Assembly (NCBI GenBank): GCA_040776805.1
Contig: JAXGZS010000001.1
Location: forward strand, 621,206-685,205
Length of the DNA stretch: 64,000 nt
Source of the DNA: Clostridiales bacterium
GTDB taxonomy: Bacteria; Bacillota; Dehalobacteriia; UBA7702
Reading direction: 5' to 3'
A program made the position numbers and the translations under genes. Below, in pieces: positions 449-22,639 of this stretch. The stretch's first letter is position 1. The number at the start of each line of letters is the position of its first letter. The notes below the pieces were generated by a model that was not told where the DNA came from, searched no databases, and worked only from the letters and a program-made list of their open reading frames with translations.

Positions 449-487
449 AATTTTTTTTTTTGATTTTTAAAATATTTGGCGGATGAC

Positions 488-516
488 TTGCAAAGGATGA
501 ATAAAAACTGTATAAT
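488..516 (+). promoter_or_regulatory. Sigma-A-like promoter (TTGCAA-17 nt-TATAAT) preceding the long non-coding region
   Basis: TTGCAA at 488-493 and TATAAT at 511-516 with a 17-nt spacer, directly downstream of the ispA stop codon. Confidence 0.5.
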
Positions 517-523
517 AATATGG

Positions 524-1120: not shown

Positions 1121-1125
1121 TTGAT

Positions 1126-1722: not shown

Positions 1723-1723
1723 T

Positions 1724-8069: not shown

Positions 8070-8127
8070 ACCGACGCCTAAGCGACGTGATTGGTTTCAC
8101 CTTAGGGCAACATCTTCTTCCGCAAAG

Positions 8128-8172
8128 AAACCCTTCTGTCGTATGGCTTTTTACGGCAGAAGGGTTTTGTCT
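8128..8172. terminator. Rho-independent terminator between recN (+) and the amidohydrolase gene (-), probably bidirectional
   Basis: A hairpin forms between cccttctgtcgta and acggcagaaggg, followed by ttttgtctt. Confidence 0.6.
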
Positions 8173-8219
8173 TAAAGTTGGTCAAAAGTTTAATTTAATT
8201 GTTGTTGCAAGGATCCTCC

Positions 8220-9047
8220 TTAGGAAAAACGATCCCCGACCAAAGCGGTGAGAAGTTCGTATTCATCTTGGCTGCCGCGGCCGTGAGGCACGATGCTGCT
8301 GCCGGAATCACTGCCCAAAAGCAGGGGAACATGGAGGGCAGCCGCCTTTTTTACCATCGCGCTATGCGCTTCCACCACGGCTTTCACGATCTCTTGATCC
8401 CAGCCCGAAAGGGCCTTTCCGTAAGTCAGCACATTGGCAAAGGGCGCTAAAGTAGGAGTCCAGGCCACCTGATGTTTTGCCATCAGCTTTAAGATATCCT
8501 CGGTGATGAAATAGCCGTGTTCCACGGAATCCATACCCACTTCGACCACAGAGCGGATGACCTCGGCAAAATTGACATGAACCATGACGGGGAGGCCGCA
8601 TTCATGGGCGGTTTCCCGGATGTAGATCAACTCCCTTTCGCTGAAGCTGCCAAAGATTTCCTGGGGCTTGCCGGTAACATCCACAAGACCGGACTGGACG
8701 ACCTTGACGCAATCGACGCCGCTTTCCATGAGGAAGTGCAGCTCCCTTTTGAGATCGTCCATGGTGCTTAACGGTTTCCCCAAATGGATGCCGTAGCGGT
8801 CTTTTTTCACCAAGGCCCGCCCTGAAGCGGAGAGGTGGATGCCCATGCTCTTTGCTTCCTCCCGTAATTGAAAGGCCAGCATCTTCTTGTCACCGCCGTC
8901 TCTTAGGGCCGTGACGCCGCGGCCCGCGTATTCCAAAAGATTGTTATACGCGTTATCTAAGTCTGTGCCCGCATATTTTTGGCCTCGATTTATTTTGCGG
9001 AAATTGCCGTAAGCCAAATGGATGTGATGATCATAAAGATTCTTCAT
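8220..9047 (-). CDS. Amidohydrolase-family metal-dependent hydrolase (TIM barrel)
   Basis: An N-terminal HHIHLAYG (HxH metal-binding) motif is present, with later His/Asp ligand-like positions. The gene is monocistronic. Confidence 0.6.
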   Translation of the reverse strand: MKNLYDHHIHLAYGNFRKINRGQKYAGTDLDNAYNNLLEYAGRGVTALRDGGDKKMLAFQLREEAKSMGIHLSASGRALVKKDRYGIHLGKPLSTMDDLKRELHFLMESGVDCVKVVQSGLVDVTGKPQEIFGSFSERELIYIRETAHECGLPVMVHVNFAEVIRSVVEVGMDSVEHGYFITEDILKLMAKHQVAWTPTLAPFANVLTYGKALSGWDQEIVKAVVEAHSAMVKKAAALHVPLLLGSDSGSSIVPHGRGSQDEYELLTALVGDRFS

Positions 9048-9270
9048 GCAATCTATTATACTCTTTTTGTCATAAAAGAAAAGTTGTTGCAGCCAATTTA
9101 AGCCGTAAAATGATAAAGAAAGTAAAATAAAATAGAATAAACACGCTGTTTCTCTACTTTCTTTACAAAGTTTATATTCCTGACAAAAAACTCACCTTTT
9201 TTTTTCGACAAAATCTTTTATAATGAAAAAAATATAACAATATTTTATAAAGTAAGCTACAATGAGTTTA

Positions 9271-9395
9271 TGGAAGAGAGCAAAGCTTTCTGGAAAGAGC
9301 AACAAAGATTCATGAGCGGATTTTTAACATATTGTATGAAGCCTCGTGAATGGGTTGTGGAAAAGAGCAAAAACACGGCAGATGGAAAGAAAAAT
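9271..9395 (+). repeat. Four purine-rich direct repeats (TGGAAAGAGCAA-like) in the 5' leader of fhs
   Basis: Copies occur at 9271, 9291, 9359 and 9383: tggaagagagcaaag / tggaaagagcaacaaag / tggaaaagagcaaaaac / tggaaagaaaaa. Confidence 0.5.
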
Positions 9396-9453
9396 TAAAA
9401 GTTCTTTACAAAGGAAAGAAAAGGAAACTAAAAAACGAGAGGAGAACAAAACT

Positions 9454-11211
9454 ATGCTTGATCCTAATGTTATGAAAGACTGGCAAATTGCGGAAGCTGC
9501 GGAGAAAGAATTACCTTCTGTTGACGCATTTCGCGAAAAAATGGGGTTACTTCCCGACGAAATTATTCCCTATGGTCGCACTCCCAAGTTGAATTTTCTC
9601 AAAATCATGGATCGCGTCAAAGATCAACCTGACGGGAAGTTCATCGAAGTTACTGCCATTACCCCCACTCCTTTGGGTGAAGGGAAATCCACCACCTCTT
9701 TGGGTATCATCGAAGGTCTCGGCAAACGCGGCATGAATGTCGGCGGTTGCCTGCGTCAGCCCTCCGGCGGACCGACCATGAACATCAAAGGTACTGCTGC
9801 CGGCGGCGGCAACGCACTGTTGATTCCGATGACGGAATTTTCTTTGGGCCTTACCGGTGATATCAACGAAATCACCAACGCCCACAATCTTTCTATGGTC
9901 GCTTTGAACGCGAGAATGCAGCATGAAAACAATTATAATGATGCAGAGCTGGCGGAAAAAGGTCTGAAACGCTTGGATATTGATCCTGAACGCGTGGAAA
10001 TGGGATGGGTGATTGACTTTGCCGCCCAATGCCTGCGCAACATTGAAATCGGTCTGGGCGGCCCGAAAGACGGCTTCCAGATGAAAAGCAAATTCGGTAT
10101 CTCCGTTAGTTCCGAATTGATGGCGATTCTTGCCGTCGCTCGCGATCTTGCGGACCTTAGAGAACGCGTCGGCAATATCATCGTTGCCTACGACAAACAG
10201 GGCAATCCCGTCACCACCGCTGATTTGCAGGTGGATGGCGCGATGACCGCCTGGATGCGCAATGCCATCAACCCGACTCTCTGTTACACTTCTGAGCTGC
10301 AGCCCTGCCTCGTTCATGCCGGCCCCTTCGCCAACATCGCCATCGGTCAGTCTTCCATCATCGGCGATAGATTGGCCTTGAAGATGTTCGATTACCATGT
10401 TACGGAAAGCGGTTTTGCCGCTGACATCGGTTTCGAAAAATTCTGGAATGTCAAATCCCGTATTTCCGGTTTGACGCCCAATGTCTCGATTCTCGTCTGC
10501 ACCGTTCGCGCCCTTAAAATGCACGGCGGCGGCCCCACCGTGGTTCCCGGCCGTCCTTTACCTGAAGAATACACCAAAGAAAACATCGATCTTCTTGAAA
10601 AAGGCATGTGCAATCTGATTCATCATATCAATACCATTAAAAAGTCGGGGATCAATCCCGTTGTTTGTATCAACAGCTTCAGCAGCGATACCGATGCGGA
10701 AATCAACCTGATTCGTCAAACCTGCGATAAAATGGGCGTTCGCTGCGCGAAATCCGAACATTGGAGATATGGCGGCGAGGGTGCTTTGGATCTGGCCGAT
10801 GCAGTCATCGATGCCTGCAAAGATCCTGTGGATCTCAAATTCCTCTATGACTTGGAAGTTCCCCTGCGTCAACGCGTGGAACTCATCGCCAAAGAAGTTT
10901 ACGGCGCCGACGGCGTAGAATGGTCCGATCTTGCCACTGAAAAGGCGAAACGCTTCGAAGCGGATCCCAAGTACAAAGACTTCTCTACCATGATGGTGAA
11001 AACACATTTGAGCTTGTCTCATGATCCTACCCTGAAAGGCGTGCCCAAAAACTGGAAACTGCCTATCCGCGACGTTTTGGTTTACGGCGGTGCCAAATTC
11101 CTCTGCCCCATGGCGGGTACGATCAGCTTGATGCCCGGTACCAGTTCCCGCCCGGCCTATATGAAGGTCGATGTGGATACCGCCACCGGCGCGGTCAAAG
11201 GACTGTTTTAA
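9454..11211 (+). CDS. fhs: Formate--tetrahydrofolate ligase
   Basis: The protein is alignable to FTHFS along its full length ([12 protein letters not shown]-loop, 586-aa size). ATG at 9454 was chosen over the upstream ORF extension. Confidence 0.95.
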
Positions 11212-11232
11212 AAAAGATAGGAGGGAGCAGCG

Positions 11233-11862
11233 ATGCGATTTGCTGAAAAGACCTGTGATCAAGTGATCACGGAATTGGCTGCAAAAGCTCCCGTTCCCGG
11301 CGGCGGCGGTGCCTCAGCTCTGGTAGGGGCTGTAGGCACCGCCCTCGGCAATATGGTAGGGAGTTTCACCAAAGGAAAGAAAAAATTTGCGGACGTAGAA
11401 GAATCCATTATTTCCCTACAGGAAAAATGCGATGATCTGCAGAACAAGTTTTTAAATCTTATGGATGACGATGCAGAGAACTTTACACCGCTTTCGAAAG
11501 CCTACGGCATGAAAGAGGATACTCAAGAGCAGCGGGAGGAAAAGGCAAGAGTGATGGAGGAAGCGACCGTCAACGCCTGCCGCGTCCCGGAAAAGATTAT
11601 GGAACTATGCTGTGAAGCCATTGACGCTTTGGAGGAGTACCTGAAAATCGGGAATCCTCTCCTCGTCAGTGATGTGGGAGTCGGCGTTCTCTGCTGCAAG
11701 GCCGCCCTTTTTGGCGCGTCTTTGAATGTTTATATCAACACGAAGTCCATGCAAAACAAAGAAACCGCCTCTTCTATCAACGAGAGAACAGGGGAAATGC
11801 TGGCCGCCTACGGCAAAAAGGCGGATGACATTTACCATGCGGTGGCAAGACAGATCCAATAA
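11233..11862 (+). CDS. fchA: Methenyltetrahydrofolate cyclohydrolase (cyclodeaminase-domain protein)
   Basis: FTCD C-terminal cyclodeaminase-like fold (~209 aa, Gly-rich N-terminus VPGGGGASALVGA). It sits between fhs and folD, as in acetogens. Confidence 0.75.
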   Translation: MRFAEKTCDQVITELAAKAPVPGGGGASALVGAVGTALGNMVGSFTKGKKKFADVEESIISLQEKCDDLQNKFLNLMDDDAENFTPLSKAYGMKEDTQEQREEKARVMEEATVNACRVPEKIMELCCEAIDALEEYLKIGNPLLVSDVGVGVLCCKAALFGASLNVYINTKSMQNKETASSINERTGEMLAAYGKKADDIYHAVARQIQ

Positions 11863-11896
11863 ATATTAAACAATAAACAAAAGGAAGGGAGATATT

Positions 11897-12754
11897 ATGG
11901 CAAAGATTTTATCCGGTAAGGAAGTTGCCGCGGCTTTGAAAGAAGATCTTTTAAAACGTGTTGCGGCGTTAAAAGATAAGGGCGTCACGCCAACCTTAGC
12001 CATTGTGCGAGTGGGAGAAAAAGACAGCGACATTGCTTATGAAAAAGGCGCCATGAAAAAATCGGAAACCTTGGGCATTGCCGTGAAAAACGTCATTTTC
12101 CCGGCGGATGTGGAAGAAGCCAAACTCATTGCCGCCCTTGAAGAACTCAACGGCGCCAAGGATGTTCACGGTGTGCTGTTATTCCGTCCGTTACCCGAAC
12201 ATTTGAATTATGACCGTGTCTGCAATACGCTGATTGCGGATAAAGACGTCGACGCCATGACCACCATCAACAGCGGTTTGGTCTATGACGGCAGTGAGGA
12301 CGGGTTCCCTCCCTGCACCGCCCAGGCGGTTATGGAAATATTGGATTATTATGAGATTCCCGTTAAGAGCGCGAAAGTCGCTTTGGTGGGCTGGGGTGCC
12401 GTGGTCGGAAAACCCCTTTCCGTACTGTTGCTGAACCGCTTTGCCACCTTAACGGTGTGTCATATCTTTACAAAAGATGTCTCCACCCCCTGTCAAGACG
12501 CGGAGCTGATTATTTCTGCGGCAGGGAAAGCCAACTTGGTGGGAGAAAAACACTTGGCAAAAGGTCAGATCGTCATCGACGTGGGGATCAACGCAGACCC
12601 CAACAACCCCGGAAAAATCGTGGGGGATGTCGATTATGCTTATGCGGAAAACCTTGTTGACGCCATTACCCCGGTTCCCGGCGGCGTGGGCAGCGTTACC
12701 ACTTCCGTGTTGGCAAAACATGTGATCATGGCTGCTGAAAAAACCCTTAGATAA
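11897..12754 (+). CDS. folD: Bifunctional methylene-THF dehydrogenase / methenyl-THF cyclohydrolase
   Basis: 285 aa. Conserved FolD regions are present, including a GxGxVGKP Rossmann motif (GWGAVVGKP). Confidence 0.9.
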   Translation: MAKILSGKEVAAALKEDLLKRVAALKDKGVTPTLAIVRVGEKDSDIAYEKGAMKKSETLGIAVKNVIFPADVEEAKLIAALEELNGAKDVHGVLLFRPLPEHLNYDRVCNTLIADKDVDAMTTINSGLVYDGSEDGFPPCTAQAVMEILDYYEIPVKSAKVALVGWGAVVGKPLSVLLLNRFATLTVCHIFTKDVSTPCQDAELIISAAGKANLVGEKHLAKGQIVIDVGINADPNNPGKIVGDVDYAYAENLVDAITPVPGGVGSVTTSVLAKHVIMAAEKTLR

Positions 12755-12787
12755 TTCCTTCTAAGGCGACGAAAGGAGTTGAACCAC

Positions 12788-14377
12788 GTGACCAACAGAT
12801 TTAAGGAGTCTCTTTTGGACCCTGGTACCTTTTCGGTAACCTGGGAAATCGTCCCCGGTCGTGGCGCCAATGAAAAAGCCCAGATCGAAGCGATTGAAAC
12901 CGCCAAGGCAGGGGCGAAGGATCCCCGCATCCACGCCATCACCATTACAGACTGTCCCAGCGGGAATCCCGCGATTTTAGCGGAGAATCTGGGCAAAGAG
13001 ATTCTGGATTTGGGCATTGAGCCATTGGTTCATTTTACCTGTAAAGATAAAAACAGAACCCAAATGGAAAGCCAACTGTATGCCATGGCCAGAAGCGGTA
13101 TCCGCAACATACTGGTGATGACCGGTGACTATGTCAACGATGCCTATCAAGGCCGCGCCAAACCGGTTTTTGACATTGACCCCATTCAGTGCGGCGGCTT
13201 GATTTCCACCATGAATCAGGGCTTAGAATATCAAGTCGGTCCCAGAACCATCAAAAACCAACCCACCGATTTCTTTTACGGCTGTGCCGTATCGCCCTTC
13301 AAAAGTCAGGAATCCGAGCAGATCGGACAGTATAACAAGCTGATCAAAAAAGTGAGAGACGGCGGCGCGCAATTTGTCATTTGCCAGCTGGGCTATGATA
13401 TACGGAAATTCCATGAAACCTTCCAATTTATGGAGCAAAATGGGCTGAACGTACCTTTGGTTGGCAATATTTACATTTTGCCTTTCGGCGCAGGGAGATT
13501 GATGAACAGAAACGGGATTCCCGGCGCTGTCGTCACCGATAAGCTTCTGCACCAGCTTGAAAAAGAAAAACAGGCGGAAGATAAGGGCAAAGAAGCGAGA
13601 TTGATGCGGGCTGCAAAAATGTACGGCATCATGAAGGGCATCGGTTTTGCCGGCGCTCACATCGGCGGCCACGGCATGAGCGCCGATGATATGGATTATA
13701 TCATCGTCGAAGGCGAAAAGTACGCGGGTAACTGGAAATCCCATGTAGATGAATTCGATTATCCCATGAAAAACGGTTTCTATTATTATCAGAAGGATCC
13801 CGAAACGGGTCTGAATTCGGAAAAACGTACGGAAATCGATCCCGATAATTTGGAATTCCGCGTGGGCGGGATCTATCATATGTCCCATTTTGTCCACTGG
13901 CTGATGATGACTCCGGGGAAAAATCTTTTTAACTTTATGCGCGGTTTCTACAAACTCATCGACGATACCAAAGTGGAGCGTCCCTATCACTTCTGCGAAC
14001 ACATGGCAAAGGTTATGCTCTATGACTGCAAAGACTGCGGCGACTGCGCCATGACCCATACGGCCTACGCCTGTCCGATGTCGAAATGTCCCAAACATCA
14101 AAGGAACGGCCCCTGCGGCGGCAGCCGTGACGGCTGGTGCGAAGTATATCCCGAGAAGAAGAAATGCATCTACGTCAAAGCCTATACCCGCCTGAAAGGG
14201 TACGGCTTGGAAGAGGAATTATCTACATATTCCGTGGCGCCTTGCGACTGGAAACTTTACCAGAAGCCCTCTTGGGTCAATTATTTCCTCGGCCGCGATC
14301 ATGATGCGAAACGCTTGGGCATTCCTTATGTGCCGCCGAAAGCGGAACGCAAAGCAATGAAACGGAACGCAAAATAA
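12788..14377 (+). CDS. metF: Methylenetetrahydrofolate reductase fused to a C-terminal MetV-like Cys-rich zinc-ribbon domain
   Basis: The N-terminal ~300 aa are alignable to MTHFR (EIVPGRG, HFTCKD, ILVMTGD). The C-terminal ~230 aa carry CKDCGDCA...CPMSKCPKHQRNGPCGG, the MetV / MTHFR-C-terminal-domain signature. GTG at 12788 is preceded by AAGGAG. Confidence 0.85.
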   Translation: MTNRFKESLLDPGTFSVTWEIVPGRGANEKAQIEAIETAKAGAKDPRIHAITITDCPSGNPAILAENLGKEILDLGIEPLVHFTCKDKNRTQMESQLYAMARSGIRNILVMTGDYVNDAYQGRAKPVFDIDPIQCGGLISTMNQGLEYQVGPRTIKNQPTDFFYGCAVSPFKSQESEQIGQYNKLIKKVRDGGAQFVICQLGYDIRKFHETFQFMEQNGLNVPLVGNIYILPFGAGRLMNRNGIPGAVVTDKLLHQLEKEKQAEDKGKEARLMRAAKMYGIMKGIGFAGAHIGGHGMSADDMDYIIVEGEKYAGNWKSHVDEFDYPMKNGFYYYQKDPETGLNSEKRTEIDPDNLEFRVGGIYHMSHFVHWLMMTPGKNLFNFMRGFYKLIDDTKVERPYHFCEHMAKVMLYDCKDCGDCAMTHTAYACPMSKCPKHQRNGPCGGSRDGWCEVYPEKKKCIYVKAYTRLKGYGLEEELSTYSVAPCDWKLYQKPSWVNYFLGRDHDAKRLGIPYVPPKAERKAMKRNAK

Positions 14378-14416
14378 CGCAGTCAGCAGAAATAAGATTT
14401 CAGTTAGGGTGATTTT

Positions 14417-14785
14417 ATGTTCAACATCAGTTTTGCCGAGCTTATGGTTATTCTGCTCATCACCTTCCTGGTGTTGGGACCGAAAGAAATGGCCAAAGTC
14501 GCCCGGGGTTTGGGCAAAGCCGTCAAAAAAGCCCAAAACTTTGTGACGGATATGAAGAACTTTGTCAATGAAAGCGCGGAAGGCACCCCTTTAAACGATA
14601 TGAAGGAGGCGGTTACCGACGTCAAGGAAGCGGTCGATTCAGTAAAAGCCGAAGTTGATAAAATGAACCCTGTCAGTGATCTCAAAAAAGAGATCGAAAC
14701 GGAAATCAAACCGATACAAGACATCAAAAACTTAAAGACCAATCCTGCCAAAAAAGGAGCGGATCTTTTGCAGAAAAAAAAGTAA
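14417..14785 (+). CDS. tatB: TatA/TatB family twin-arginine translocase subunit
   Basis: An N-terminal TM helix is followed by a hinge and an amphipathic helix (FGPKEMAKVARGLGKAVKK). The acidic/charged tail is longer than in TatA. Confidence 0.75.
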   Translation: MFNISFAELMVILLITFLVLGPKEMAKVARGLGKAVKKAQNFVTDMKNFVNESAEGTPLNDMKEAVTDVKEAVDSVKAEVDKMNPVSDLKKEIETEIKPIQDIKNLKTNPAKKGADLLQKKK

Positions 14786-14815
14786 AATCCTTTTAAGAAA
14801 GGGGGAAACCTCTCA

Positions 14816-16429
14816 ATGAGTAAGGGAAATAAAAAGGAAAAAATTGATCCCAAACTAACAAGACGACAATTCTTGGGACTTACCGCCGCCGCCGGTACCA
14901 TGGCGGCGCTCACCGGTTGCGATGTTGTGGATAAAGTAGGCGGCAATGACAATTGGCTGCCCACCCAATACCGCAACAGCGGCAACTACCCGATCAACGC
15001 CAAGGGGCGCATTCCCATCGATCCCGATAATCCGTCGATCATGCGCATCGACGAGAAATGCATCCTCTGCGGGCAGTGCATTGAGGTATGCCAGAATACA
15101 CAGACCATTCACGGTTACTATAAATTGCCTGTTTTGGATACCTTTATGTGCATTAACTGCGGGCAGTGCAGTTTGTGGTGTCCCACCGGTGCCATCCAGG
15201 AAAAGCCCTATATCGACGAGGTTAATGCAGCCATCAACGATCCCGATAAGATCGTGGTGGTGGCCATCTCTCCCGGGGTGCGCATCTCCATCGGCGAAGA
15301 ATTCGGCATGGAGGCGGGGACTTGGGCCCAGGAACAAATGGTTACTGCCGTCCGCCGTCTCGGTGCGGATTACGTATTCAATATCGACTTCTCCTCAGAC
15401 TCCACCATCATGGAGGAAGGCAGCGAGTTTGTCCACCGTGTTACCAACGATGGTGTTCTGCCTCAGTTTACCTCCTGCTGTCCGGCATGGAAGAAATTTG
15501 TCGAATTATACTATCCGGAATTGATTCCCAACATCTCATCGGCAAAAAGCCCCGTGGCGGAAATGGCTGCCTTGGTAAAGACCTATTGGGCGAAGAAAAA
15601 AGGGATCGATCCCTCTAAAATCGTCTATGTGAACGTTCCGCCCTGTACCTGCAAGAAATTCGAAGCCACCACGTTCAATATCGATTCGGCAGCCCGATAT
15701 TGGGAAGAATATGAAGATATCGATTACGGTGCTATCCCCGATATCGATTATGTGCTTTCCACCAGAGAGCTGGCGAGGATGATCAAAACCGCTAATATTG
15801 ATTTTGTCAATTTGCCCGCGGGAGAATTCGACCCCATGCTCAGTGAAGGCAGCGGCGCGGCGGTGATTTTCGCCAACAACGGCGGCGTGATGGAAGCGGC
15901 GATTCGTACCGCCTATTATCTCGTCACCGGAGAGGATCCCCCGGACGACCTTTATCATTTGACGGCTGTCCGCGACAACGACCTCGACGGGTATGCCGAA
16001 GGCAGCCTTGAGGTTCCCGGTTTCGGCACCCTCAATGTGGCGGTTTGCAACGGGTTACACGCCGCCCGTACCCTCTGTGAAGAGATCAAACAGGGCAAAC
16101 GCCCTGAATTGCATTTCCTGGAAGTCATGGCCTGTCCCGGCGGTTGTATCGGCGGCGGCGGCCAGGCCAGAAAAACAGTGCCTCCTACGGACGCTCTGCG
16201 GAAAGCCCGTATTGATTCCATTTACGCTGCCGATGAGGCCATGAATAAAGCGGACAGAGTCAGCTACAAGAATGCTGAAATCGCCACTTTATACAAAGAA
16301 TTCCTCGGTGAGCCTTTGAGCGAACTGTCGGAGTTACTCCTGCATATGCACTACATCGACAGAAGTAAGTCGGTCCATCCGAAAGATACCTCGGATTACG
16401 TCGATACTTACTTCTCCGGTTTGGAATAG
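14816..16429 (+). CDS. hydA: [FeFe]-hydrogenase catalytic subunit with Tat signal peptide and lipobox (exported, membrane-anchored)
   Basis: The N-terminus carries an RRQFLG twin-arginine motif followed by a lipobox LTGC. There are two ferredoxin-like CxxCxxCxxxCP motifs. All three H-cluster signatures are present: TSCCPAW (L1), PPCTCKKFE (L2) and MACPGGCIGGGGQ (L3). Confidence 0.9.
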   Translation: MSKGNKKEKIDPKLTRRQFLGLTAAAGTMAALTGCDVVDKVGGNDNWLPTQYRNSGNYPINAKGRIPIDPDNPSIMRIDEKCILCGQCIEVCQNTQTIHGYYKLPVLDTFMCINCGQCSLWCPTGAIQEKPYIDEVNAAINDPDKIVVVAISPGVRISIGEEFGMEAGTWAQEQMVTAVRRLGADYVFNIDFSSDSTIMEEGSEFVHRVTNDGVLPQFTSCCPAWKKFVELYYPELIPNISSAKSPVAEMAALVKTYWAKKKGIDPSKIVYVNVPPCTCKKFEATTFNIDSAARYWEEYEDIDYGAIPDIDYVLSTRELARMIKTANIDFVNLPAGEFDPMLSEGSGAAVIFANNGGVMEAAIRTAYYLVTGEDPPDDLYHLTAVRDNDLDGYAEGSLEVPGFGTLNVAVCNGLHAARTLCEEIKQGKRPELHFLEVMACPGGCIGGGGQARKTVPPTDALRKARIDSIYAADEAMNKADRVSYKNAEIATLYKEFLGEPLSELSELLLHMHYIDRSKSVHPKDTSDYVDTYFSGLE

Positions 16430-16442
16430 GAGGTGAGCATTG

Positions 16443-17267
16443 ATGAGTAGTAATAGTGCTGTTTTATTCAACGTTGCCAAATGCATTGGCTGCGGCAGCT
16501 GTACCGTTGCCTGCAAACTATGGAACGACCTTGAATTCGGGGATAGCAATGCTCACGGATTTGACGCGGCATTGGCCGCGGATAACTGGACCGTTGTTCA
16601 GTATCACGCCATTAAAAACAAAGAGGATCAAAGCGTATTCCGTTTTGCCAAACGCCAATGTATGCACTGCCTGGAACCTTCTTGCGCTTCCGTTTGTTTC
16701 GCCAACGCCATTACCGTGGACGAAAGCGGCGCCGTGGTTTACAGCCCCAAAAAATGTGTGGGTTGCCGCTATTGCCTGATTGCCTGTCCCTTTGACGTGC
16801 CGAAATACGAGTGGAATAAGGTCTTCCCTTCGGTGATGAAATGCCAGCTTTGCAATGATAAATTGGCGGAAGGCGAAATTCCTTCCTGCGTTTCGGTTTG
16901 TCCCACCGGCGCCCTTATTTTCGGCGACCGCGACAAACTGCTGGAAAAAGCCCATGCCATCATCGCCACTTCCGCGGCCACGGAAAATATGGAAGCAACC
17001 CATTACGTCAATGAGGTCTACGGTGAAAAACAGGCGGGGGGTACCCGTTGGCTGTATATCTCCGACGTTCCTTTCACGGAATTGGGCTTCCCCGCTTCCG
17101 TGCCGAAGAAGAGCATACCGGGAATTGTCCAAGATTACACCAAGTGGAAACCGGGGGTATTTCTGGGAGCCGCCGCGGCCTTTGGCGCCATCGGCATCTA
17201 TACCAAACGCAGACTGAAAATTGAAGAAGAAAAAGCCGGTGAGAATGGAGGCGAAAATAATGTTTGA
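16443..17267 (+). CDS. Four-cluster [4Fe-4S] electron-transfer subunit (FdnH/HybA/PsrB-like) with C-terminal TM anchor
   Basis: Four Cys clusters are present (CIGCGSCTVAC, CMHCLEPSCASVC, CVGCRYCLIACP, CQLC...CVSVCP). There is no signal peptide. A C-terminal hydrophobic helix GVFLGAAAAFGAIGIY is followed by KRRLK. Confidence 0.85.
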   Translation: MSSNSAVLFNVAKCIGCGSCTVACKLWNDLEFGDSNAHGFDAALAADNWTVVQYHAIKNKEDQSVFRFAKRQCMHCLEPSCASVCFANAITVDESGAVVYSPKKCVGCRYCLIACPFDVPKYEWNKVFPSVMKCQLCNDKLAEGEIPSCVSVCPTGALIFGDRDKLLEKAHAIIATSAATENMEATHYVNEVYGEKQAGGTRWLYISDVPFTELGFPASVPKKSIPGIVQDYTKWKPGVFLGAAAAFGAIGIYTKRRLKIEEEKAGENGGENNV

Positions 17268-18471
17268 TTATACTCTCAAGATCAATAAAAAAGCAAGTTT
17301 TCGCTTTACACTGACGCGTTGGATCCTTTTGCTTTTGGCCGCGTTCGGCATCTTCATTTTGATCTACCGCCTCATCAACGGCTTGGGGGCCACCACGAAT
17401 TTGTCTGACGAATGGCCCTGGGGCTTTTGGATCTATATGGATTTGATCTTAAGCGCCTTGGGCGCCTGCGGTTTCGCCGTCGCCATTCTAACCCACATTT
17501 TCCATGTGGAAAAATTCAAACCGTTGGCCCGCAGAGCCTTGCTGATGTCATTTTGCTGTTATGTCCTCGTATTCCTGATTCTCTTTATTGAAATCGGGCG
17601 TTGGGATAACTTCTACTGGTTCTTTATTTCGGGAGCTTTTACTTCACCCCTTTATGAAGTGGCCATTTGTATCACCCTCTACATCATCGTGCAGGTATTT
17701 GAACTTTTGGAAGTTTGGGGCGACCGTTATAAATCCTGGGTGAAACATATTACCCGGTTTTTCCTGCCCTTCTTTGTCCTCTTGGCCTGTATCATTCCCT
17801 TTGGTCAAGAAGCGGCATACGGCGCGCTTTACCTGGCGATGCCGGCGAAACTCAGCACGATTTGGTACTCGCAATTCCTGCCTTGGGCTTGTTTGATCAC
17901 TTCGTTTTCCGGTGGTCTCTGTTTTGTGGCTGCGGAATATTACGCCCACAACCGTCACTATAAAAAGACCTCCGACGACGCCATGATCAAGAGCTTGCTG
18001 CGGGTTGCCGGTGCCTTCATCCTCATCTACATCGTACTGAAATTCGTCGATCTTTCCGTGCGCGGCGCCTGGACCGAAGTGTTCTCCGGCTCTGCTTCCG
18101 GAAATATGTTCCTCGTAGAATTCATTGTGGGTTCCATTGTTCCTGCGGTGCTGATTTTCAGCCCCATGATCAAGAACTCAATGTGTCAGCTGATTGCCGC
18201 CATTTGCGGTATATTGGGTGTATTAATCAATCGTTTTGATTTCGTTTTTGTCGGCATGGCAGGCTACACCGACGTATCCTATTTCCCCAAATGGACAGAA
18301 ATTTGGCTGGTCATCGGCCTTACCGCGCTGGTGGCGCTAGTCTATATCTTCGCCGTTGAAAACCTTCCCGTCAACCAGGGGAAACACGACGAAAAACCGG
18401 ACATCGTCAGCCGTCCGCCGGCAGGGATCATCCATGTATCCAAAAATGAACAAAACAGTGTTTCTGAATAA
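17260..18471 (+). CDS. NrfD/PsrC/HybB-family integral membrane (quinone-interacting) subunit
   Basis: ~400 aa with 8-10 hydrophobic helices. The typical NrfD-like N-terminal region is present. ATG at 17260 is preceded by GGAGG and overlaps the upstream gene by 8 nt. Confidence 0.8.
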   Translation: MFDYTLKINKKASFRFTLTRWILLLLAAFGIFILIYRLINGLGATTNLSDEWPWGFWIYMDLILSALGACGFAVAILTHIFHVEKFKPLARRALLMSFCCYVLVFLILFIEIGRWDNFYWFFISGAFTSPLYEVAICITLYIIVQVFELLEVWGDRYKSWVKHITRFFLPFFVLLACIIPFGQEAAYGALYLAMPAKLSTIWYSQFLPWACLITSFSGGLCFVAAEYYAHNRHYKKTSDDAMIKSLLRVAGAFILIYIVLKFVDLSVRGAWTEVFSGSASGNMFLVEFIVGSIVPAVLIFSPMIKNSMCQLIAAICGILGVLINRFDFVFVGMAGYTDVSYFPKWTEIWLVIGLTALVALVYIFAVENLPVNQGKHDEKPDIVSRPPAGIIHVSKNEQNSVSE

Positions 18472-18515
18472 ACACGTTATTCTTGCCGAGAAGTAGGCAG
18501 AAGGGGGATGCTCTT

Positions 18516-18752
18516 ATGAGAATTGGTGTATGGGAAATACTTCTGATCATCGTTTTGGTGCTTATCCTTTTTGGTGGCGCCAAGTTAGCCGGGGTCGGCA
18601 AAAACTTGGGACGCGGCATCAAAGAGTTTAAAGAAGAGGTTAAAGACACCGGCGAATCCTCTCCACAGGTTGCGGAAGCGTCTGCGGAAGAAACCAAAAA
18701 AGCGGAAGATACCGAAAAAAAGGAAGCTAAAAATTCCGAGCCCGACGCATAA
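18516..18752 (+). CDS. tatA: Twin-arginine translocase subunit TatA
   Basis: ILLIIVLVLILFGGAKLAGVGKNLGRGIKEFK is a canonical TatA TM-hinge-amphipathic-helix region. Confidence 0.9.
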   Translation: MRIGVWEILLIIVLVLILFGGAKLAGVGKNLGRGIKEFKEEVKDTGESSPQVAEASAEETKKAEDTEKKEAKNSEPDA

Positions 18753-18778
18753 TAAGTTTATCATTTCGTAAGAAGAAG

Positions 18779-19570
18779 GTGAGGCCATTGGCTGATACGA
18801 AGCAGGCGCTGATAGAGCATTTGAATGAGTTGCGCAAAACCTTGATGTATTGCGTGATTGTCTTAGCTGTTAGCTTTGTGCTTGTATTCGCGTTGTTTTG
18901 CGATCCGCTGATGGAGATACTCTTGGCGCCGATCCGCAAGCTCGGTGTGGAATTGGTCTATACGACCTTGACCGAAGTTTGGGTGGTGAAAATGAAAGTC
19001 TCCTTTATTGCGGGGTTTGTGCTTTCTTTTCCCGTCATTTCTTTCTTTTTCTGGCGCTTTCTGCGCCCGGCCTTGTATGCCAGTGAAAAAAGAATGTTTG
19101 CCGTGATGTATTTTTCCTCCCTTTTTCTTTTTATTCTCGGTGTTTGCTTCGCTTTTGTCGCCGTATTGGGTCTAAGCATCAATTTCTTTATTTCCTTTGG
19201 CAGCGGCACTGCTGAACCCATGCTCTCCATCAGCAAGGTGGTCAGCTATATGATGAGCTTCATCATTCCTTTCGGCTTAGTATTCTTGCTGCCTTTGGTG
19301 GTGTATATCCTTACTAAAATCGGCGTCTTGTCTCCCGCGTTATTGGTGAAATCGCGGAAGTATGTCATCGTGATTCTGTCTGTTTTGGCGGCGATTTTGA
19401 CACCTCCGGATATCATTTCACAAATTTTGCTCCTCATTCCTATGCTTCTTTTGTGGGAAATCAGCGTGTTCATCGCGAAACGCGTAAAAGTGAACAAAGA
19501 CCGGCGTGAGGCCAGAGAAAGCCTCGACGCCGGCATAAAAAAGGATGAATCAAAGAGTACAACGGAATAA
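18779..19570 (+). CDS. tatC: Twin-arginine translocase subunit TatC
   Basis: Six TM helices are predicted, with the N-terminal LIEHLNELRKTL signature and the size typical of TatC. Confidence 0.9.
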   Translation: MRPLADTKQALIEHLNELRKTLMYCVIVLAVSFVLVFALFCDPLMEILLAPIRKLGVELVYTTLTEVWVVKMKVSFIAGFVLSFPVISFFFWRFLRPALYASEKRMFAVMYFSSLFLFILGVCFAFVAVLGLSINFFISFGSGTAEPMLSISKVVSYMMSFIIPFGLVFLLPLVVYILTKIGVLSPALLVKSRKYVIVILSVLAAILTPPDIISQILLLIPMLLLWEISVFIAKRVKVNKDRREARESLDAGIKKDESKSTTE

Positions 19571-19706
19571 CGGTCTACTGTAAGCCTTGGTACTGAAGGT
19601 ACTTCTGTCCATTGAAAAGACGCTTTACAAAAATCGTTCGCAACCGCAAAGGGCATCTTCGCGATTGCCGTTGTTTCGCCTTGATACACGAAAGAAGGAG
19701 AATATT

Positions 19707-20528
19707 ATGAGTTTTTTAGCTCCCAATGAAATTGCGAAGGCAGTTTCAACCCTTGGCGAAAAGAAGGGGAAAATGTCTGTCGGCAAACTGATTCTGCCCG
19801 GCCTCCTCGCCGGTGCGTATATTGCTTTGGCCGCAGTGGCCTGTATCACCATAGGCGCCGGCTGGGTCGGCGACTGGGCGGCTTCCGGCTTGAATAAGGC
19901 CGCCGGCGCCGCCGCCTTTACCGTCGGCCTCATGCTTGTGGTGGTTGCCGGCGCCGAATTGTTTACCGGTGACAATATGTATTGCGCCGTTTCTTACCTG
20001 GATAAAAAATCCACCCTTGGTGAGTTGGTGAGAAACTGGGTCACGGTTTACTTCACCAACTTCATCGGCGCCCTGGTCGTGGTATCCATGATCTATTTGG
20101 GCGGTTTCCTCCTAGCCAACGGTGAGCCTTCGGCTTTCGCGACCAAAGCCATTGCCATCGCCACGGCAAAATCCTCCCTCACCTGGGGGCAGGCATTCTT
20201 CCGCGGTATTTTCTGTAACTGGCTGGTTTGCCTCGCCGTCTGGATGGCCGTGGGCTCCCAGGATATTATCAGCAAGATCTTTGCTTGCTTTTTCCCCATC
20301 TTCACCTTCGTACTTTGCGGTTTTGAACACAGTGTCGCCAATATGTTCTTCATTCCCATGGGGATCATCGCGGCCAACGGTTCCGTGGATGTTCTCACCG
20401 TCAGCAACTTTTTAGTGGGCAACCTGATCCCCGTTACCCTCGGCAACATTGTCGGCGGCGGTATTTTCGTGGGTCTCGTTTACTACCTCATGTACCTCAA
20501 AGGCGCGGATGTCAAATTGAAAGCCTAA
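19707..20528 (+). CDS. focA: Formate/nitrite transporter family channel (FocA-like)
   Basis: FNT signature motifs ELFTGDNMY and FEHSVANM are present, with six TM segments. ATG at 19707 is preceded by AAGGAG. Confidence 0.85.
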   Translation: MSFLAPNEIAKAVSTLGEKKGKMSVGKLILPGLLAGAYIALAAVACITIGAGWVGDWAASGLNKAAGAAAFTVGLMLVVVAGAELFTGDNMYCAVSYLDKKSTLGELVRNWVTVYFTNFIGALVVVSMIYLGGFLLANGEPSAFATKAIAIATAKSSLTWGQAFFRGIFCNWLVCLAVWMAVGSQDIISKIFACFFPIFTFVLCGFEHSVANMFFIPMGIIAANGSVDVLTVSNFLVGNLIPVTLGNIVGGGIFVGLVYYLMYLKGADVKLKA

Positions 20529-20635
20529 AGACGGTCTGATTGATTGTCGGATCCCTTGGCGGTGATGCCGCGTGTAGATTTATTTTAATTTTGTGAAACC
20601 TTTTAACCTGTTATACCTGTTAATTTTGTCCTTTC

Positions 20636-20675
20636 ACCTCTGTGCTTTGATGGCACAGAGGTTCTTTTTTGGCTC
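20636..20675. terminator. Rho-independent terminator after focA
   Basis: cctctgtgc tttgatg gcacagagg, followed by ttcttttttgg. Confidence 0.75.
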
Positions 20676-20737
20676 TATAGGAAAGGCTTTTGCTTCTTTT
20701 ACCGTATCGGTTTCCCTGCAAAGAGAGGCCGGTATCC

Positions 20738-21154
20738 CTATTTTACAACCAGCACGGAACAGGGCGCCAAGCGCACAAGGCTTGCGCAGGTGCTGCCCAT
20801 GATCCTTTCATAAATTGCCGATACGCCCAAAAAGCCGATGATCAAGAGATCGATGTCTTGCTCCATGATAAACTCAATTATCGCCTTTACCTCATGTCCA
20901 AATAAGATATGAGGGATAATGGCGCCGCCCTCCGCGGCGGCGACGGCTTGCGCTTCCTCGATAATTTTTTTGTATTTGCTGTCTTCGTAATCCTTTTCAT
21001 CCATCACTTCGCTGATGGTTTCCGGAAAGCGCAGCATGGCCTCCACGGATACGGTATGCAATGGGGCGTCATAAAAACGTGCAAGCCGTATGCCCTCCGC
21101 CAACGCCTTAAAGGCGTTTTTTGAACCATCAAGACCTACCAGTATCTTGTTCAT
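20738..21154 (-). CDS. uspA: Universal stress protein (UspA family)
   Basis: 138 aa with USP-fold ATP-binding motifs (VGLDGS near the N-terminus, GSTCASL near the C-terminus). Co-operonic with the antiporter. Confidence 0.8.
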   Translation of the reverse strand: MNKILVGLDGSKNAFKALAEGIRLARFYDAPLHTVSVEAMLRFPETISEVMDEKDYEDSKYKKIIEEAQAVAAAEGGAIIPHILFGHEVKAIIEFIMEQDIDLLIIGFLGVSAIYERIMGSTCASLVRLAPCSVLVVK

Positions 21155-22361
21155 GGTGATGCTCCTCTCTTTTTACAGAATAACTGATTTTGTTTGACTT
21201 TGCCTTTCCCCAATCGTTCATCTCCTCCGCCGAAGGTTCAAAAAACCGCTGAGCGATCAAAGTTGGTATGATTGCGGTCAGGATAATGACGGTAACCAGC
21301 ACAGAATATTGGTCTTGCCCGATGATATGATGGGAAAGCCCAAATTGCGCTGAAATGGTACCGAAGGTAAGCCCGGTGGACATCAGCAGCGTTGTATAAT
21401 TGGCTTGTTTGAGCCCCATCTGAAACCCCCTTGCCGCCGGCCAGACGCCGATCATTTTGCAGAGGACTTTCATCAAGAATAAAGCGGCGATCACCCCAAA
21501 GGATAGCCAAACGGCATGCAAGGACACATGCAAGCCCGCTTTCATAAAGTAGAAAGGGGTGAAAACCGCGAAGGTGATGGTACGCATCCGGCTGATGAGG
21601 GTTTTATTTTTAACGAATACCCCCGCAACCACAAGACCGATGAGATAAGCGGGAAGCACCGCCTCGCTGCCGGCAAGGGTGGCAAGTCCCGCTAAAAGGA
21701 AGAGGACGAAAAAGATGAATTTTACTTCCGGTTCGCTGACCCTTTGTTCTCCGCATTTGGCAAGGATAAATCTTGTGAGGCGAGGCATCAAAAACATCAC
21801 GATGGCCGTGAGCACAATAAAAACAAGCAGATACAAATTGAATCCGGCAAAGAGTACACCGAGAGCGATGACAGTGGCCAAGTCGTTGACGAAACAGGCC
21901 GCCAGGATCATCTTGCCGAGGCTGGTGTTGGCTTTACCCGTTTCGATCATCACCGCATATACCACCGCCACCGAAGTCGTGGAAAGAGCGAGTCCGGCGA
22001 TTTGCGCCTGCTGGAGATCCCAGCCAAGCACAAATTGGGTAAAAAGCCAGACGCCGCCAAAGGGAAAAATGAATGCCGCGATACCGATGGTGAGACTGCT
22101 TTTTAAATTGGCGCGTAAGGAAACCGGGTCAATTTCCGCGCCGGACAGGAAGGTCAAGACGACGCTTCCCAAAGCGGCTAAAAAATCAATCCATTCATTG
22201 GTTTGGTGAAGACCCAAGAAATTTCCCGCAATCACGCCGACGATGATTTCGATCAAAGCCACAGAAATACCAAGACGTATGGAGATCAGGCTGGCGAAAA
22301 AGGCGAGGCCGATCCAGATGGCGGCGATGACCCAGGTGTTGTTCAAAATCGTTGATAACAA
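21129..22361 (-). CDS. Cation:proton antiporter (CPA family Na+/H+ or K+/H+ exchanger), fluoride-riboswitch controlled
   Basis: 410 aa with ~11-12 TM helices and Na_H_Exchanger-like topology. The gene lies immediately downstream (minus strand) of two crcB-motif riboswitches. Confidence 0.8.
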   Translation of the reverse strand: MLSTILNNTWVIAAIWIGLAFFASLISIRLGISVALIEIIVGVIAGNFLGLHQTNEWIDFLAALGSVVLTFLSGAEIDPVSLRANLKSSLTIGIAAFIFPFGGVWLFTQFVLGWDLQQAQIAGLALSTTSVAVVYAVMIETGKANTSLGKMILAACFVNDLATVIALGVLFAGFNLYLLVFIVLTAIVMFLMPRLTRFILAKCGEQRVSEPEVKFIFFVLFLLAGLATLAGSEAVLPAYLIGLVVAGVFVKNKTLISRMRTITFAVFTPFYFMKAGLHVSLHAVWLSFGVIAALFLMKVLCKMIGVWPAARGFQMGLKQANYTTLLMSTGLTFGTISAQFGLSHHIIGQDQYSVLVTVIILTAIIPTLIAQRFFEPSAEEMNDWGKAKSNKISYSVKREEHHHEQDTGRS

Positions 22362-22412: not shown

Positions 22413-22494
22413 AAAAAACTCCTACAAATGACGCAAAGCCGCGTATCTGTAGGAGTCATTAGCTAAAAAGCGATTCAGTGAACTCCATCACTAT
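22413..22494 (-). promoter_or_regulatory. Fluoride riboswitch (crcB motif), copy 2 (gene-proximal), with intrinsic terminator
   Basis: Minus-strand RNA: AGUGAUGGAGUUCACU-GAAUCGC-...-GCUAAUGACUCCUAC. It has a P1 helix, an AUGGAGUU loop, an AAAC-like joint and the conserved 3' AAUGACUCCUAC pseudoknot strand. The terminator hairpin at 22419-22455 (ctcctaca...tgtaggag plus U-run) overlaps the 3' aptamer strand. Confidence 0.8.
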
Positions 22495-22523
22495 CGTGGA
22501 TATTGGATTTTTTAAATTTGACC

Positions 22524-22606
22524 ATAAAAAAACACCTACTTCAAATTCATGAAAGTAGGAGCCATTAGCAATTTTCATTGCGTTTCGGTGAGCCCCATCA
22601 CCATAA
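22524..22606 (-). promoter_or_regulatory. Fluoride riboswitch (crcB motif), copy 1 (promoter-proximal), with intrinsic terminator
   Basis: Minus-strand RNA: GGUGAUGGGGCUCACC-GAAACGCAAUGAAAAUUGC-UAAUGGCUCCUAC. It is near-colinear with the Thermotoga petrophila fluoride aptamer (GGCGAUGAGGCCCGCC-CAAACUGCCCUGAAAAGGGC-UGAUGGCCUCUAC). The terminator hairpin at 22533-22559 plus a U7 run overlaps the pseudoknot strand. Confidence 0.85.
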
Positions 22607-22610
22607 CGAG

Positions 22611-22639
22611 ATTATAGCACGTTGCTTTTTCTTTGTAAA
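22611..22639 (-). promoter_or_regulatory. Promoter (TTTACA-17 nt-TATAAT, minus strand) for the riboswitch-antiporter-usp operon
   Basis: Reverse complement reads ctcTTTACAaagaaaaagcaacgtgcTATAATctcg, directly 5' of aptamer 1. Confidence 0.6.

Follow-up and report, generated by a model that had tools for sequence, protein, structure and literature searches.

A putative Tat-exported, lipid-anchored [FeFe]-hydrogenase on a HybA/HybB-like membrane module in an apparent methyl-branch operon of a Dehalobacteriia bacterium

What would an outward-facing [FeFe]-hydrogenase do among the genes for the methyl branch of the Wood–Ljungdahl pathway (WLP)? This question is raised by positions 14417–18471 of a 64-kb stretch of DNA (the window, to which coordinates refer unless another locus is named) from an uncultured Firmicute of the order UBA7702 in the class Dehalobacteriia. 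An initial annotation described there a hydrogenase exported by twin-arginine translocation (Tat), anchored by a lipid and mounted on an FeS plus NrfD-family membrane scaffold. The interval consists of four co-directional open reading frames (ORFs), not three, which encode a TatA/B-family protein, the [FeFe]-hydrogenase HydA, an FeS protein and an NrfD-family protein; the features that had been described all lie within it, but position 14417 is the start of the TatA/B-family gene, which had gone unnamed, and not of hydA. We think it somewhat probable that these genes specify a reversible, outward-facing H2:quinone oxidoreductase that is coupled to the proton-motive force (pmf), is co-expressed with and serves the one-carbon (C1) metabolism of the methyl branch, and mainly vents the electrons of methyl-tetrahydrofolate (methyl-THF) as H2.

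The locus is larger than the three genes to which it had been confined, an extent that missed the tatB-like gene, tatA and tatC on the flanks of the hydrogenase and fhs-fchA-folD-metFV upstream. Because of the gene spacing and a single strong terminator after focA, positions 9454–20528 can be read as one apparent operon of 11 genes, fhs-fchA-folD-metFV-tatB-like-hydA-FeS-nrfD-tatA-tatC-focA. From metFV to tatC, genes overlap or are separated by 10–44 nucleotides (nt), with metFV ending 39 nt before the tatB-like gene and the FeS gene beginning 10 nt past the hydA stop codon. The hairpin at 20636–20662 is the sole strong + strand terminator between fhs and the next gene, a Usp gene on the opposite strand (20738–21154). 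The view that hydA, the FeS gene and nrfD belong to one unit is upheld by the 10-nt gap, the overlap of the latter two genes, their adjacency in other genomes and the lack of any convincing terminator inside the cluster. The focA gene, previously described as adjacent, is part of the apparent operon, but tatA and tatC lie between it and nrfD. The features are as follows (aa, amino acids; TM, transmembrane).

9454–11211, + strand: fhs, formate–tetrahydrofolate ligase (Pfam FTHFS, E = 1.5e-215, match from ORF residue 44)
11233–11862, + strand: fchA, methenyl-THF cyclohydrolase (Pfam FTCD_C, E = 8.3e-63)
11897–12754, + strand: folD, methylene-THF dehydrogenase/cyclohydrolase (THF_DHG_CYH_C, E = 2.1e-47; THF_DHG_CYH, E = 1.4e-29)
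12779–14377, + strand: metF-metV fusion (metFV), methylene-THF reductase with a C-terminal Cys-rich MetV-like domain, 532 aa (Pfam MTHFR, E = 3.2e-18; DUF5981 'MTHFR C terminal', E = 1.1e-26)
14417–14785, + strand: tatB-like TatA/B-family translocase component, 122 aa (Pfam TatA_B_E, E = 1.1e-08)
14816–14920, + strand: predicted HydA signal peptide: TRRQFLG, then an h-region rich in A/G/T, then LTGC as the lipobox (Cys35)
14816–16429, + strand: hydA, [FeFe]-hydrogenase catalytic subunit, 537 aa (Fe_hyd_lg_C, Fe_hyd_SSU, TIGR02512)
16440–17267, + strand: HybA/HmcB-like electron-transfer subunit with four [4Fe-4S] clusters, 275 aa (Pfam Fer4_11, E = 2e-23)
17245–18471, + strand: nrfD, HybB/HmcC-like NrfD-family integral membrane subunit (Pfam NrfD, E = 4.2e-16)
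18516–18752, + strand: tatA, one TM helix (Pfam TatA_B_E, E = 1.6e-13; NCBIfam tatAE, E = 2.5e-14)
18779–19570, + strand: tatC, six TM helices (Pfam TatC, E = 2.7e-60; TIGR00945, 181.2 bits vs. a cut-off of 132.7)
19707–20528, + strand: focA-type formate/nitrite transporter (Form_Nir_trans, E = 2e-82; TIGR00790, 235.8 bits vs. a cut-off of 232.3)
20636–20672, + strand: intrinsic-terminator-like hairpin 3' of focA (11-bp stem with six GC pairs, followed by a T-run)

The ORFs of fhs, the first gene of the apparent operon, and of tatA are open from 9346 and 18483, with likely starts at Met37 and Met12, respectively, and that of focA is open from 19587. The nrfD ORF opens at 17221, its start being at 17221 or 17245, and overlaps the FeS gene. 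MetFV has no predicted TM helix, i.e., it is a soluble protein.

The HydA N-terminus contains TRRQFL at residues 15–20 (TRRQFLG, 15–21), an h-region rich in alanine, glycine and threonine, and LTGC at residues 32–35, in agreement with the twin-arginine signal and lipobox (RRQFLG, LTGC) noted earlier. These features are conserved family-wide. Of the best 120 HydA homologs (48–88% identity), 116 have the RR motif and the remaining four are N-terminally truncated; among their sources are the named isolates Desulforamulus ruminis, Desulfotomaculum nigrificans, Syntrophobotulus glycolicus, Pelotomaculum and Ammonifex. The lipobox, defined as [LVI][ASTVI][GAS]-C where the signal peptide ends, is found in its strict form in 111 of these 116 N-termini and as [GAS]-C in 114, at a median distance of 22 residues from the RR motif to the cysteine. 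Conservation of the RR motif together with the lipobox is far beyond chance. The D. ruminis genome paper, based on SignalP 4, interpreted the signal of its HydA as an uncleaved membrane anchor (PMC3569383); given that the lipobox is family-wide, we prefer lipoprotein processing, and the N-terminal sequences suggest that members of the family are Tat-exported lipoproteins rather than uncleaved signal-anchored proteins. A literature search for a lipobox together with [FeFe]-hydrogenase found no relevant paper.

HydA itself belongs to the group A [FeFe]-hydrogenases by NCBIfam TIGR02512 (418.4 bits vs. a cut-off of 405.95) and matches Pfam Fe_hyd_lg_C (E = 1.6e-79), Fe_hyd_SSU (E = 2.2e-15) and two Fer4 motifs. 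The Fe_hyd_lg_C and NrfD domains proposed earlier as checks on the locus were both matched. All three H-cluster motifs originally claimed were located, TSCCPAW at residues 219–225, PPCTCKKFE at 275–283 and EVMACPGGCIGGGGQ at 436–450, and the two F-cluster motifs are CILCGQCIEVC (residues 82–92) and CINCGQCSLWC (residues 112–122). We compared these with the group A definition, which comprises P1 (TSCCPxW), P2 (MPCxxKxxE), P3 (ExMxCxxGCxxGxGQ), the four cysteine ligands and the proton-path residues; both proton-path elements, MEExxExxxR and AKSP, are found. The closest solved match of HydA residues 68–525 is an engineered large–small subunit fusion of the Desulfovibrio periplasmic HydAB (8ryh_A, E = 1.4e-104), from which it follows that the small-subunit element is fused C-terminally in HydA, with the export signal at the N-terminus of the same polypeptide. 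Between the lipobox cysteine and the first F-cluster is a family-specific linker (residues 36–75, window 14921–15040) with invariant residues W47, P49, Q51, Y52, G64, R65, P67 and D69 (GWLPxQY ... GR.PID); GWxPxQY occurs just past the cysteine in 117 of the best 120 homologs. This linker, which has no counterpart in Desulfovibrio HydA, may be where the FeS or NrfD subunits dock.

The description of the next gene product as a signal-less four-cluster FeS subunit with a C-terminal anchor holds: the protein has exactly 16 cysteines in four cluster motifs and ends in a moderately hydrophobic stretch, GVFLGAAAAFGAIGIY, followed by KRRLK. It is 33% identical to Escherichia coli HybA (E = 4e-50), and its residue 7 aligns to HybA residue 39. 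Since the alignment starts just past the HybA signal, the FeS subunit lacks a HybA-type Tat signal, and the short distance to hydA leaves no room for a signal peptide. Its homologs across the contexts compared are 261–273 aa long and start no more than 20 nt from the hydA stop codon or overlap it. In NCBIfam, HmcB (E = 5e-70) and HybA (E = 5.5e-66) come ahead of FDH-beta, DmsB, TtrB and NrfC, with scores below the equivalog cut-offs (NF008134, 222.9 vs. 263; HmcB, 236 vs. 420), and the closest solved match, tail anchor included, is FdnH (1kqf_B, E = 1.6e-37).

The assignment of the membrane protein to the NrfD family also proved correct (Pfam NrfD, 59.9 bits vs. a cut-off of 25.8). NCBIfam places HybB first (E = 4.7e-59), followed by HmcC and QrcD, with a score below the HybB equivalog cut-off (NF008133, 200.8 vs. 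450), and the identity to E. coli HybB is 28% over 361 residues (E = 1e-38). A hydropathy scan indicates 10 TM helices, and the odd-numbered loops are rich in lysine and arginine, which predicts an N-in, C-in topology; no heme ligand pattern is present. An AlphaFold2 model built from 62 homologs (pLDDT 87, pTM 0.88) is closest by Foldseek to the 10-helix ActC of alternative complex III (TM-score 0.64–0.72), and PsrC with bound menaquinone (2vpw_C) was also matched, whereas phmmer found no match of the subunit among PDB sequences. Using the quinone-site and proton-path residues and mutation data for HybB collected in the review of Calisto and Pereira (PMC8076601), we mapped HybB residues onto the 62 family members. 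Three residues proposed for the quinone site, D58, S129 and E133, show little or no variation, and position D109 holds either E or D. The window subunit retains D58, S129, E133, R89, Y99, Y141, E148, E291, K198 and R329, has conservative changes at D109E, E155D, R265K and E268D and other changes at S105I, S190A, H184Q and H200S. Mutation of HybB R89, Y99, E148 or H184 lowers Hyd-2 activity in a protonophore-relievable manner (PMC8076601); three of these four residues (R89, Y99 and E148) are kept here. Together, the sequence comparisons place the scaffold with the HybA/HybB (= HmcB/HmcC) flavor of FeS plus NrfD module and not with the formate dehydrogenase-N (Fdh-N) or 8-helix Psr type. Both subunits are to be regarded as homologs, not orthologs or equivalogs, of the E. 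coli proteins because their NCBIfam scores fall below equivalog cut-offs.

The hydrogenase is bracketed by tatC and two distinct genes of the TatA family, one of which encodes a TatB-like protein whose tail is long and charged. The TatB-like protein has one N-terminal TM helix and its best NCBIfam match is TatB (TIGR01410, E = 4e-13, below the cut-off). A TatB-like component is unusual for Firmicutes. Context 'L002' of our comparison is 'Peptococcaceae bacterium UBA7702', a metagenome-assembled genome (MAG) that is the type genome of the GTDB order UBA7702 (PMC10327494), and in its KEGG Orthology (KO) table tatC and tatA have a single entry each for the entire genome (PMC10327494 supplement). 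Given these single entries, the Tat system of the operon may be the only one of the organism; in MAG UBA7702 its tatC is apparently the sole tatC.

Is this arrangement peculiar to one genome? We compared ten lineage contexts, the window lineage including L001 and L002. The hydA, FeS and nrfD genes are adjacent in 10 of 10, and tat genes flank the hydrogenase in seven. The six-gene cassette tatB-like-hydA-FeS-nrfD-tatA-tatC is found in the window lineage (L001, L002), in L005, L087, L088, L090 and L091, all five of which keep the tatB-like gene upstream of hydA, and in GCA_016648615; D. ruminis (L003) and L092 carry just the triplet, without adjoining tat or WLP genes. The entire series fhs-fchA-folD-metFV-cassette-focA is also present in L002 (HydA 98% identical). 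L001 (HydA 87%) has the full arrangement as far as its 9.4-kb contig reaches, from fchA to tatC; the contig ends about 310 nt past tatC, before any focA position. A WLP-linked arrangement without tatB and tatC is found in L006 (HydA 69%) and the full one in L091 (HydA 54%), with focA as the 3'-most gene of the series in L002, L006 and L091. The MetF–MetV fusion is kept in L001, L002, L006 and L091 (79–95% identity), and in each it directly precedes the hydrogenase cassette on the upstream side. In L091, the neighboring proteins are 65–89% identical to those of the window (Fhs 89%, MetFV 80%, NrfD 73%) and thus closer to them than HydA (54%; positions 10001–11560 of that locus), suggesting that the catalytic subunit was replaced, or is evolving much faster, within an otherwise conserved operon. 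The operon slot is conserved while the catalytic subunit differs.

A metagenome scan with the HydA clade alignment returned ordinary cytoplasmic HydAs without an N-terminal match at 78 of 80 loci, the matched patterns being generic H-domain motifs; L008 and L009, the only scan loci covering the HydA N-terminus, had no detectable FeS or NrfD neighbors. L006 carries a TM1266-like gene, a Radical_SAM plus BATS (HydG-like) gene and hydF upstream of its cassette (positions 283–3210 of that locus) and a cytoplasmic NuoE/NuoF/HydA (HydABC-type) hydrogenase downstream (14764–18229), so that maturases and both inward- and outward-facing [FeFe] enzymes share a single neighborhood.

The hydA-FeS-nrfD triplet is already known from genomes, and what the present analysis adds is the family-wide lipobox, the Tat cassette that travels with the enzyme and the fusion to a methyl-branch/focA operon. 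Pereira et al., in a 2011 comparative genomic study of sulfate reducers that the Desulfotomaculum genome papers cite, were probably the first to describe the enzyme type. The same kind of 'membrane-associated' Tat [FeFe]-hydrogenase is encoded by D. ruminis Desru_3431–3433 and 0447–0445 and by Desulfotomaculum gibsoniae Desgi_0926–0928, both of which were described solely on the basis of genome sequences (PMC3569383, PMC4148979). Locus L003 of D. ruminis resembles the window in having, in the same order, an RR-signal HydA, a Fer4_11 FeS protein and NrfD (51, 50 and 38% identity, respectively), and its HydA (P0074) has the RR motif and lipobox at the N-terminus; it differs in having no flanking tat genes, WLP genes or focA and in a P2 motif that begins MPC instead of the PPC of the window. 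These loci are closer to the window than Syntrophomonas wolfei Hyd2 (Swol_1925–1927), with which the initial annotation had compared it. Hyd2 is likewise a Tat-signal, external, membrane-bound [FeFe] HydA with a co-encoded FeS subunit and was proposed to be menaquinone-linked, but its published description sets it apart by a b-type cytochrome membrane subunit in place of an NrfD-family protein (PMC3582634). A 2021 survey of NrfD-like subunits listed fifteen complex types, none of them with an [FeFe] head, and no HybB in Firmicutes (PMC8076601).

E. coli Hyd-2 (HybOABC) shares with the window homologous FeS and membrane subunits, 10 TM helices, the lack of heme, an outward-facing orientation and Tat export, but has a HybO plus HybC head in place of a single [FeFe] HydA, and HybA, unlike the FeS subunit here, has its own Tat signal. 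The contrast previously drawn with Hyb-type enzymes thus applies to the catalytic head and not to the scaffold, and the proposed FdnH/PsrB plus NrfD/PsrC scaffold is indeed an FeS plus NrfD module, but one nearest to HybA/HybB and HmcB/HmcC. The comparison with the architecture of Fdh-N must be abandoned: FdnH, like the FeS subunit here, is signal-less, exported with its catalytic partner and tail-anchored, whereas the anchor of Fdh-N (FdnGHI) is a di-heme cytochrome b and not NrfD. PsrC shares the NrfD fold but has eight helices rather than 10, and the catalytic subunits of Fdh-N and Psr carry a molybdenum bis(pyranopterin guanine dinucleotide) cofactor, whereas Pfam finds no molybdopterin domain in the window cluster. 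The stated difference from Desulfovibrio HydAB (DdH) is borne out. DdH resembles the window HydA in having two F-clusters and a small-subunit element but is a soluble two-subunit enzyme with the Tat signal on its small subunit; in the window, HydA itself carries the small-subunit domain as a C-terminal fusion and the signal and lipobox at its N-terminus, and there are two additions, a conserved 30-residue linker (GWLPxQY...) and a membrane module.

How might such a complex work? From the domain identities, signal features, gene order and conservation described above, we infer that HydA and the signal-less FeS subunit would fold and acquire their cofactors in the cytoplasm and that the pair would then be exported together by the co-encoded TatA, TatB-like and TatC proteins via the twin-arginine signal of HydA. 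Such Tat 'hitch-hiker' export is known for FdnGH and HybOC and Tat-inserted tail anchors are known as well, both of which fit a signal-less, tail-anchored FeS subunit. After export, HydA would be lipidated at Cys35, the FeS subunit would be held by its C-terminal helix, and both would dock on the 10-helix NrfD/HybB-like subunit. Electrons leaving the H-cluster would cross the two HydA F-clusters and then the four clusters of the FeS partner to arrive at a quinone site that the NrfD-like subunit has close to its outer face, with quinone protonation linked to the cytoplasm via HybB-like proton half-channels. Such half-channels would make the reaction reversible and pmf-coupled, as reported for E. 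coli Hyd-2, which has been described as a pmf-generating periplasmic complex (PMC5902676).

In the direction that we favor, pmf would drive the approximately −200 mV electrons of methyl-THF oxidation out as external H2, formate would exit via FocA, and the enzyme would change to an uptake mode at high H2. The menaquinone couple lies at about −74 mV and the H+/H2 couple at −414 mV. For the methylene-/methyl-THF couple a value of about −200 mV has been given (as cited in PMC6895022), and a path from H2 through menaquinol to MetFV would be uphill in its second step; in the reverse route, from methyl-THF through quinone to external H2, pmf input would be needed only at the hydrogenase. The same reverse-route scheme was proposed for Thermacetogenium phaeum and S. 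wolfei (PMC6895022, PMC3582634), and Pelotomaculum HybAB modules were proposed to perform pmf-driven transfer from menaquinol to H2 or to formate (preprint 10.64898/2026.06.25.734252). T. phaeum, in which electrons of methyl-THF oxidation (−200 mV) are proposed to pass via quinone to an outward, Tat-exported formate dehydrogenase or hydrogenase at the expense of pmf (PMC6895022), is a functional precedent for our reading as a scheme in which the methylene-THF reductase (MTHFR) depends on quinone. Its components are dispersed, its hydrogenase is a [NiFeSe] enzyme with cytochrome b, and its MetFV has Hdr/MvhD partners; in the window, MetFV and the hydrogenase share an operon and no connector is encoded.

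We favor release of H2 and formate for three reasons: a source fed with methanol, the presence of MTTB genes and that of a formate channel. MAG UBA7702 (2.6 Mb, GC content 49.5%; window, ~0.50) is from a methanol-fed anode biofilm, and close relatives are also from rumen. The window contains an MTTB-family (trimethylamine/glycine-betaine-type) methyltransferase gene at 37495–38904 on the − strand and a TetR gene at 38962–39555. MTTB-family genes lie within 20 kb of the cassette in three loci, namely the window, L005 (17936–19357) and the 3' end of L091, and their recurrence is consistent with a methylotrophic lifestyle. A comparative study of the Dehalobacteriia that covers the cytoplasmic HydABC, Hnd and Stn systems makes no mention of Tat, menaquinone or a membrane-bound [FeFe]-hydrogenase (PMC10327494), and because of this silence the complex appears to have been overlooked so far for the class.

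Several observations weigh against the reading of a quinone-linked, H2-evolving partner of the methyl branch. In HydA, the P2 motif reads PPC and not the canonical MPC, i.e., the methionine beside the H-cluster is replaced by proline (residues 275–277, window 15638–15646); PPC is typical of the clade of the window (18 of the best 120 homologs) and TPC of a second clade, whereas the Desulfotomaculum clade and L091 keep MPC. The window subunit has Gln in place of HybB His184, a residue that matters for function in E. coli (His in 41 and Gln in 21 of the 62 family members). Domain searches of the 64-kb window found none of the maturase genes hydE, hydF or hydG, and Pfam domains reveal no Hdr-, CCG-, MvhD- or Rnf(C)-like quinone connector for the soluble MetFV in the operon. 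The UBA7702 KO table lists menA, one heptaprenyl-diphosphate synthase (hepS) and an F-type ATPase but no menB/C/D/E/F, mqn genes or ubiE, making quinone availability uncertain (PMC10327494). WLP linkage occurs in only three of the ten lineage contexts, whose NrfD and MetFV proteins have high mutual identity. Catalytic direction cannot be read from sequence. To our knowledge, no member of this outward-facing membrane-bound [FeFe]-hydrogenase family has been purified, solved or biochemically studied.

These points bear unequally on the alternatives. That the genes are mere neighbors, with the RR motif a relic and HydA cytoplasmic, is very improbable: Pfam TAT_signal scores below its cut-off on HydA (18.0 vs. 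22.7 bits), but the RR motif, h-region, lipobox and spacing are kept in more than 95% of homologs, dedicated tat genes flank the enzyme, and its FeS partner is tail-anchored and invariably accompanied by an adjacent membrane subunit. We also consider it improbable, though to a lesser degree, that the complex is quinone-independent, with the NrfD-like subunit as a scaffold or proton path only and electrons delivered to another protein on the outer face. Dehalococcoides, which lacks quinones, uses a membrane organohalide-respiration complex discussed together with HybA and HybB (PMC10772276), and both the incomplete de novo menaquinone pathway of UBA7702 and the silence of the comparative study on menaquinone would suit this view; the presence of menA and hepS, the (near-)invariant quinone-site residues of the 62 family members and the absence of a candidate extracytoplasmic acceptor gene from the operon speak against it. 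Less easily dismissed, if still unlikely, is that the same complex is an H2-uptake enzyme that conserves energy by oxidizing external H2, releasing protons on the outer side and reducing the quinone pool, with reducing power passing to formate/CO2 assimilation through the co-expressed methyl branch and FocA importing formate. Among solved structures, the catalytic domain is closest to the periplasmic enzyme of Desulfovibrio, the positions of fhs (first) and focA (last) fit formate import followed by activation, and in L006 the neighboring cytoplasmic HydABC would permit H2 cycling. However, menaquinol cannot reduce methylene-THF (−200 mV, PMC6895022) without energy input, which makes a route from H2 via quinone to MetFV thermodynamically awkward, H2-dependent lithotrophic growth was excluded for two cultured Dehalobacteriia (PMC10327494), and the habitats of the relatives (methanol-fed anode biofilm, rumen) are methyl-rich and H2-consuming.

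The direction of catalysis and the link to C1 metabolism are the weakest part of our argument, and for that link a purely regulatory explanation is at least as likely. We give about even chances to the possibility that MetFV is fed by ferredoxin or NAD(P)H and that the cassette happened, in one lineage, to settle downstream of a C1 operon with strong expression. It occurs by itself in L005, L087, L088, L090 and GCA_016648615, the D. ruminis and L092 loci have neither tat nor WLP neighbors, and no quinone:MetFV connector is encoded. Moreover, the three WLP-linked lineages look related (NrfD 69–73% and MetFV 79–80% identical) and probably form one broader clade, which limits the independence of the linkage evidence. 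Nevertheless, gene order has been kept although FchA identity falls to 67% and that of HydA to 54–69%, L091 has a catalytic subunit of another sub-clade (MPC vs. PPC) in the same slot, and the 3'-terminal focA persists in L002, L006 and L091. The reading of a methyl-branch hydrogenase that we favor can be taken a step further, and we propose tentatively, as a doubtful extension, that the 11-gene operon is a self-contained chemiosmotic module connecting the MetFV couple to external H2 via quinone and the HybB-like proton path. This module would act as an H2:methylene-THF oxidoreductase in one direction and as a pmf-driven methyl-THF:H+ oxidoreductase in the other, with formate exchange via FocA.

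Models of syntrophy and of sulfate reduction by Gram-positive bacteria have repeatedly invoked outward-facing membrane-bound [FeFe]-hydrogenases. Genes for a Tat machinery of its own accompany the enzyme in many lineages, and in Dehalobacteriia-like organisms the apparent operon suggests that the enzyme is transcriptionally fused with the WLP methyl branch and a formate channel. A link to MetFV, if true, would bear on the membrane coupling of the −200 mV MTHFR step, and the chemiosmotic module, if true, would be the long-sought membrane link of this step in quinone-containing acetogens, methylotrophs and syntrophic acetate oxidizers.

Several further features of the region were considered. Promoter and terminator predictions across the cluster were no more numerous than in shuffled sequence and only the hairpin at 20636 was convincing; a promoter-like site at 19681–19708 was not trusted because it overlaps the focA start. 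Minus-strand ORFs over the cluster (e.g., 14404–14985 and 16518–17132) are shadows of the coding strand without independent support, and a lateral-transfer island was dismissed given the flat GC content (~0.50). An Rfam scan of positions 8000–21000 found no leader or riboswitch, fluoride riboswitches occurring only farther downstream. These are two tandem fluoride aptamers (RF01734) on the − strand at 22443–22501 and 22549–22611 (scores of 45.6 and 44.1 bits, each exceeding the gathering score), located directly upstream of a Na_H_Exchanger-family gene (21129–22361, − strand), which suggests that this gene encodes a fluoride-induced cation/proton antiporter under tandem riboswitch control. Finally, two unrelated loci, the window (26935–30411, − strand, 1158 aa) and L090 (4365–8702, 1445 aa), encode a very large fused BcrAD_BadFG plus DUF2229 'CoA-enzyme activase' close to the hydrogenase cassette.

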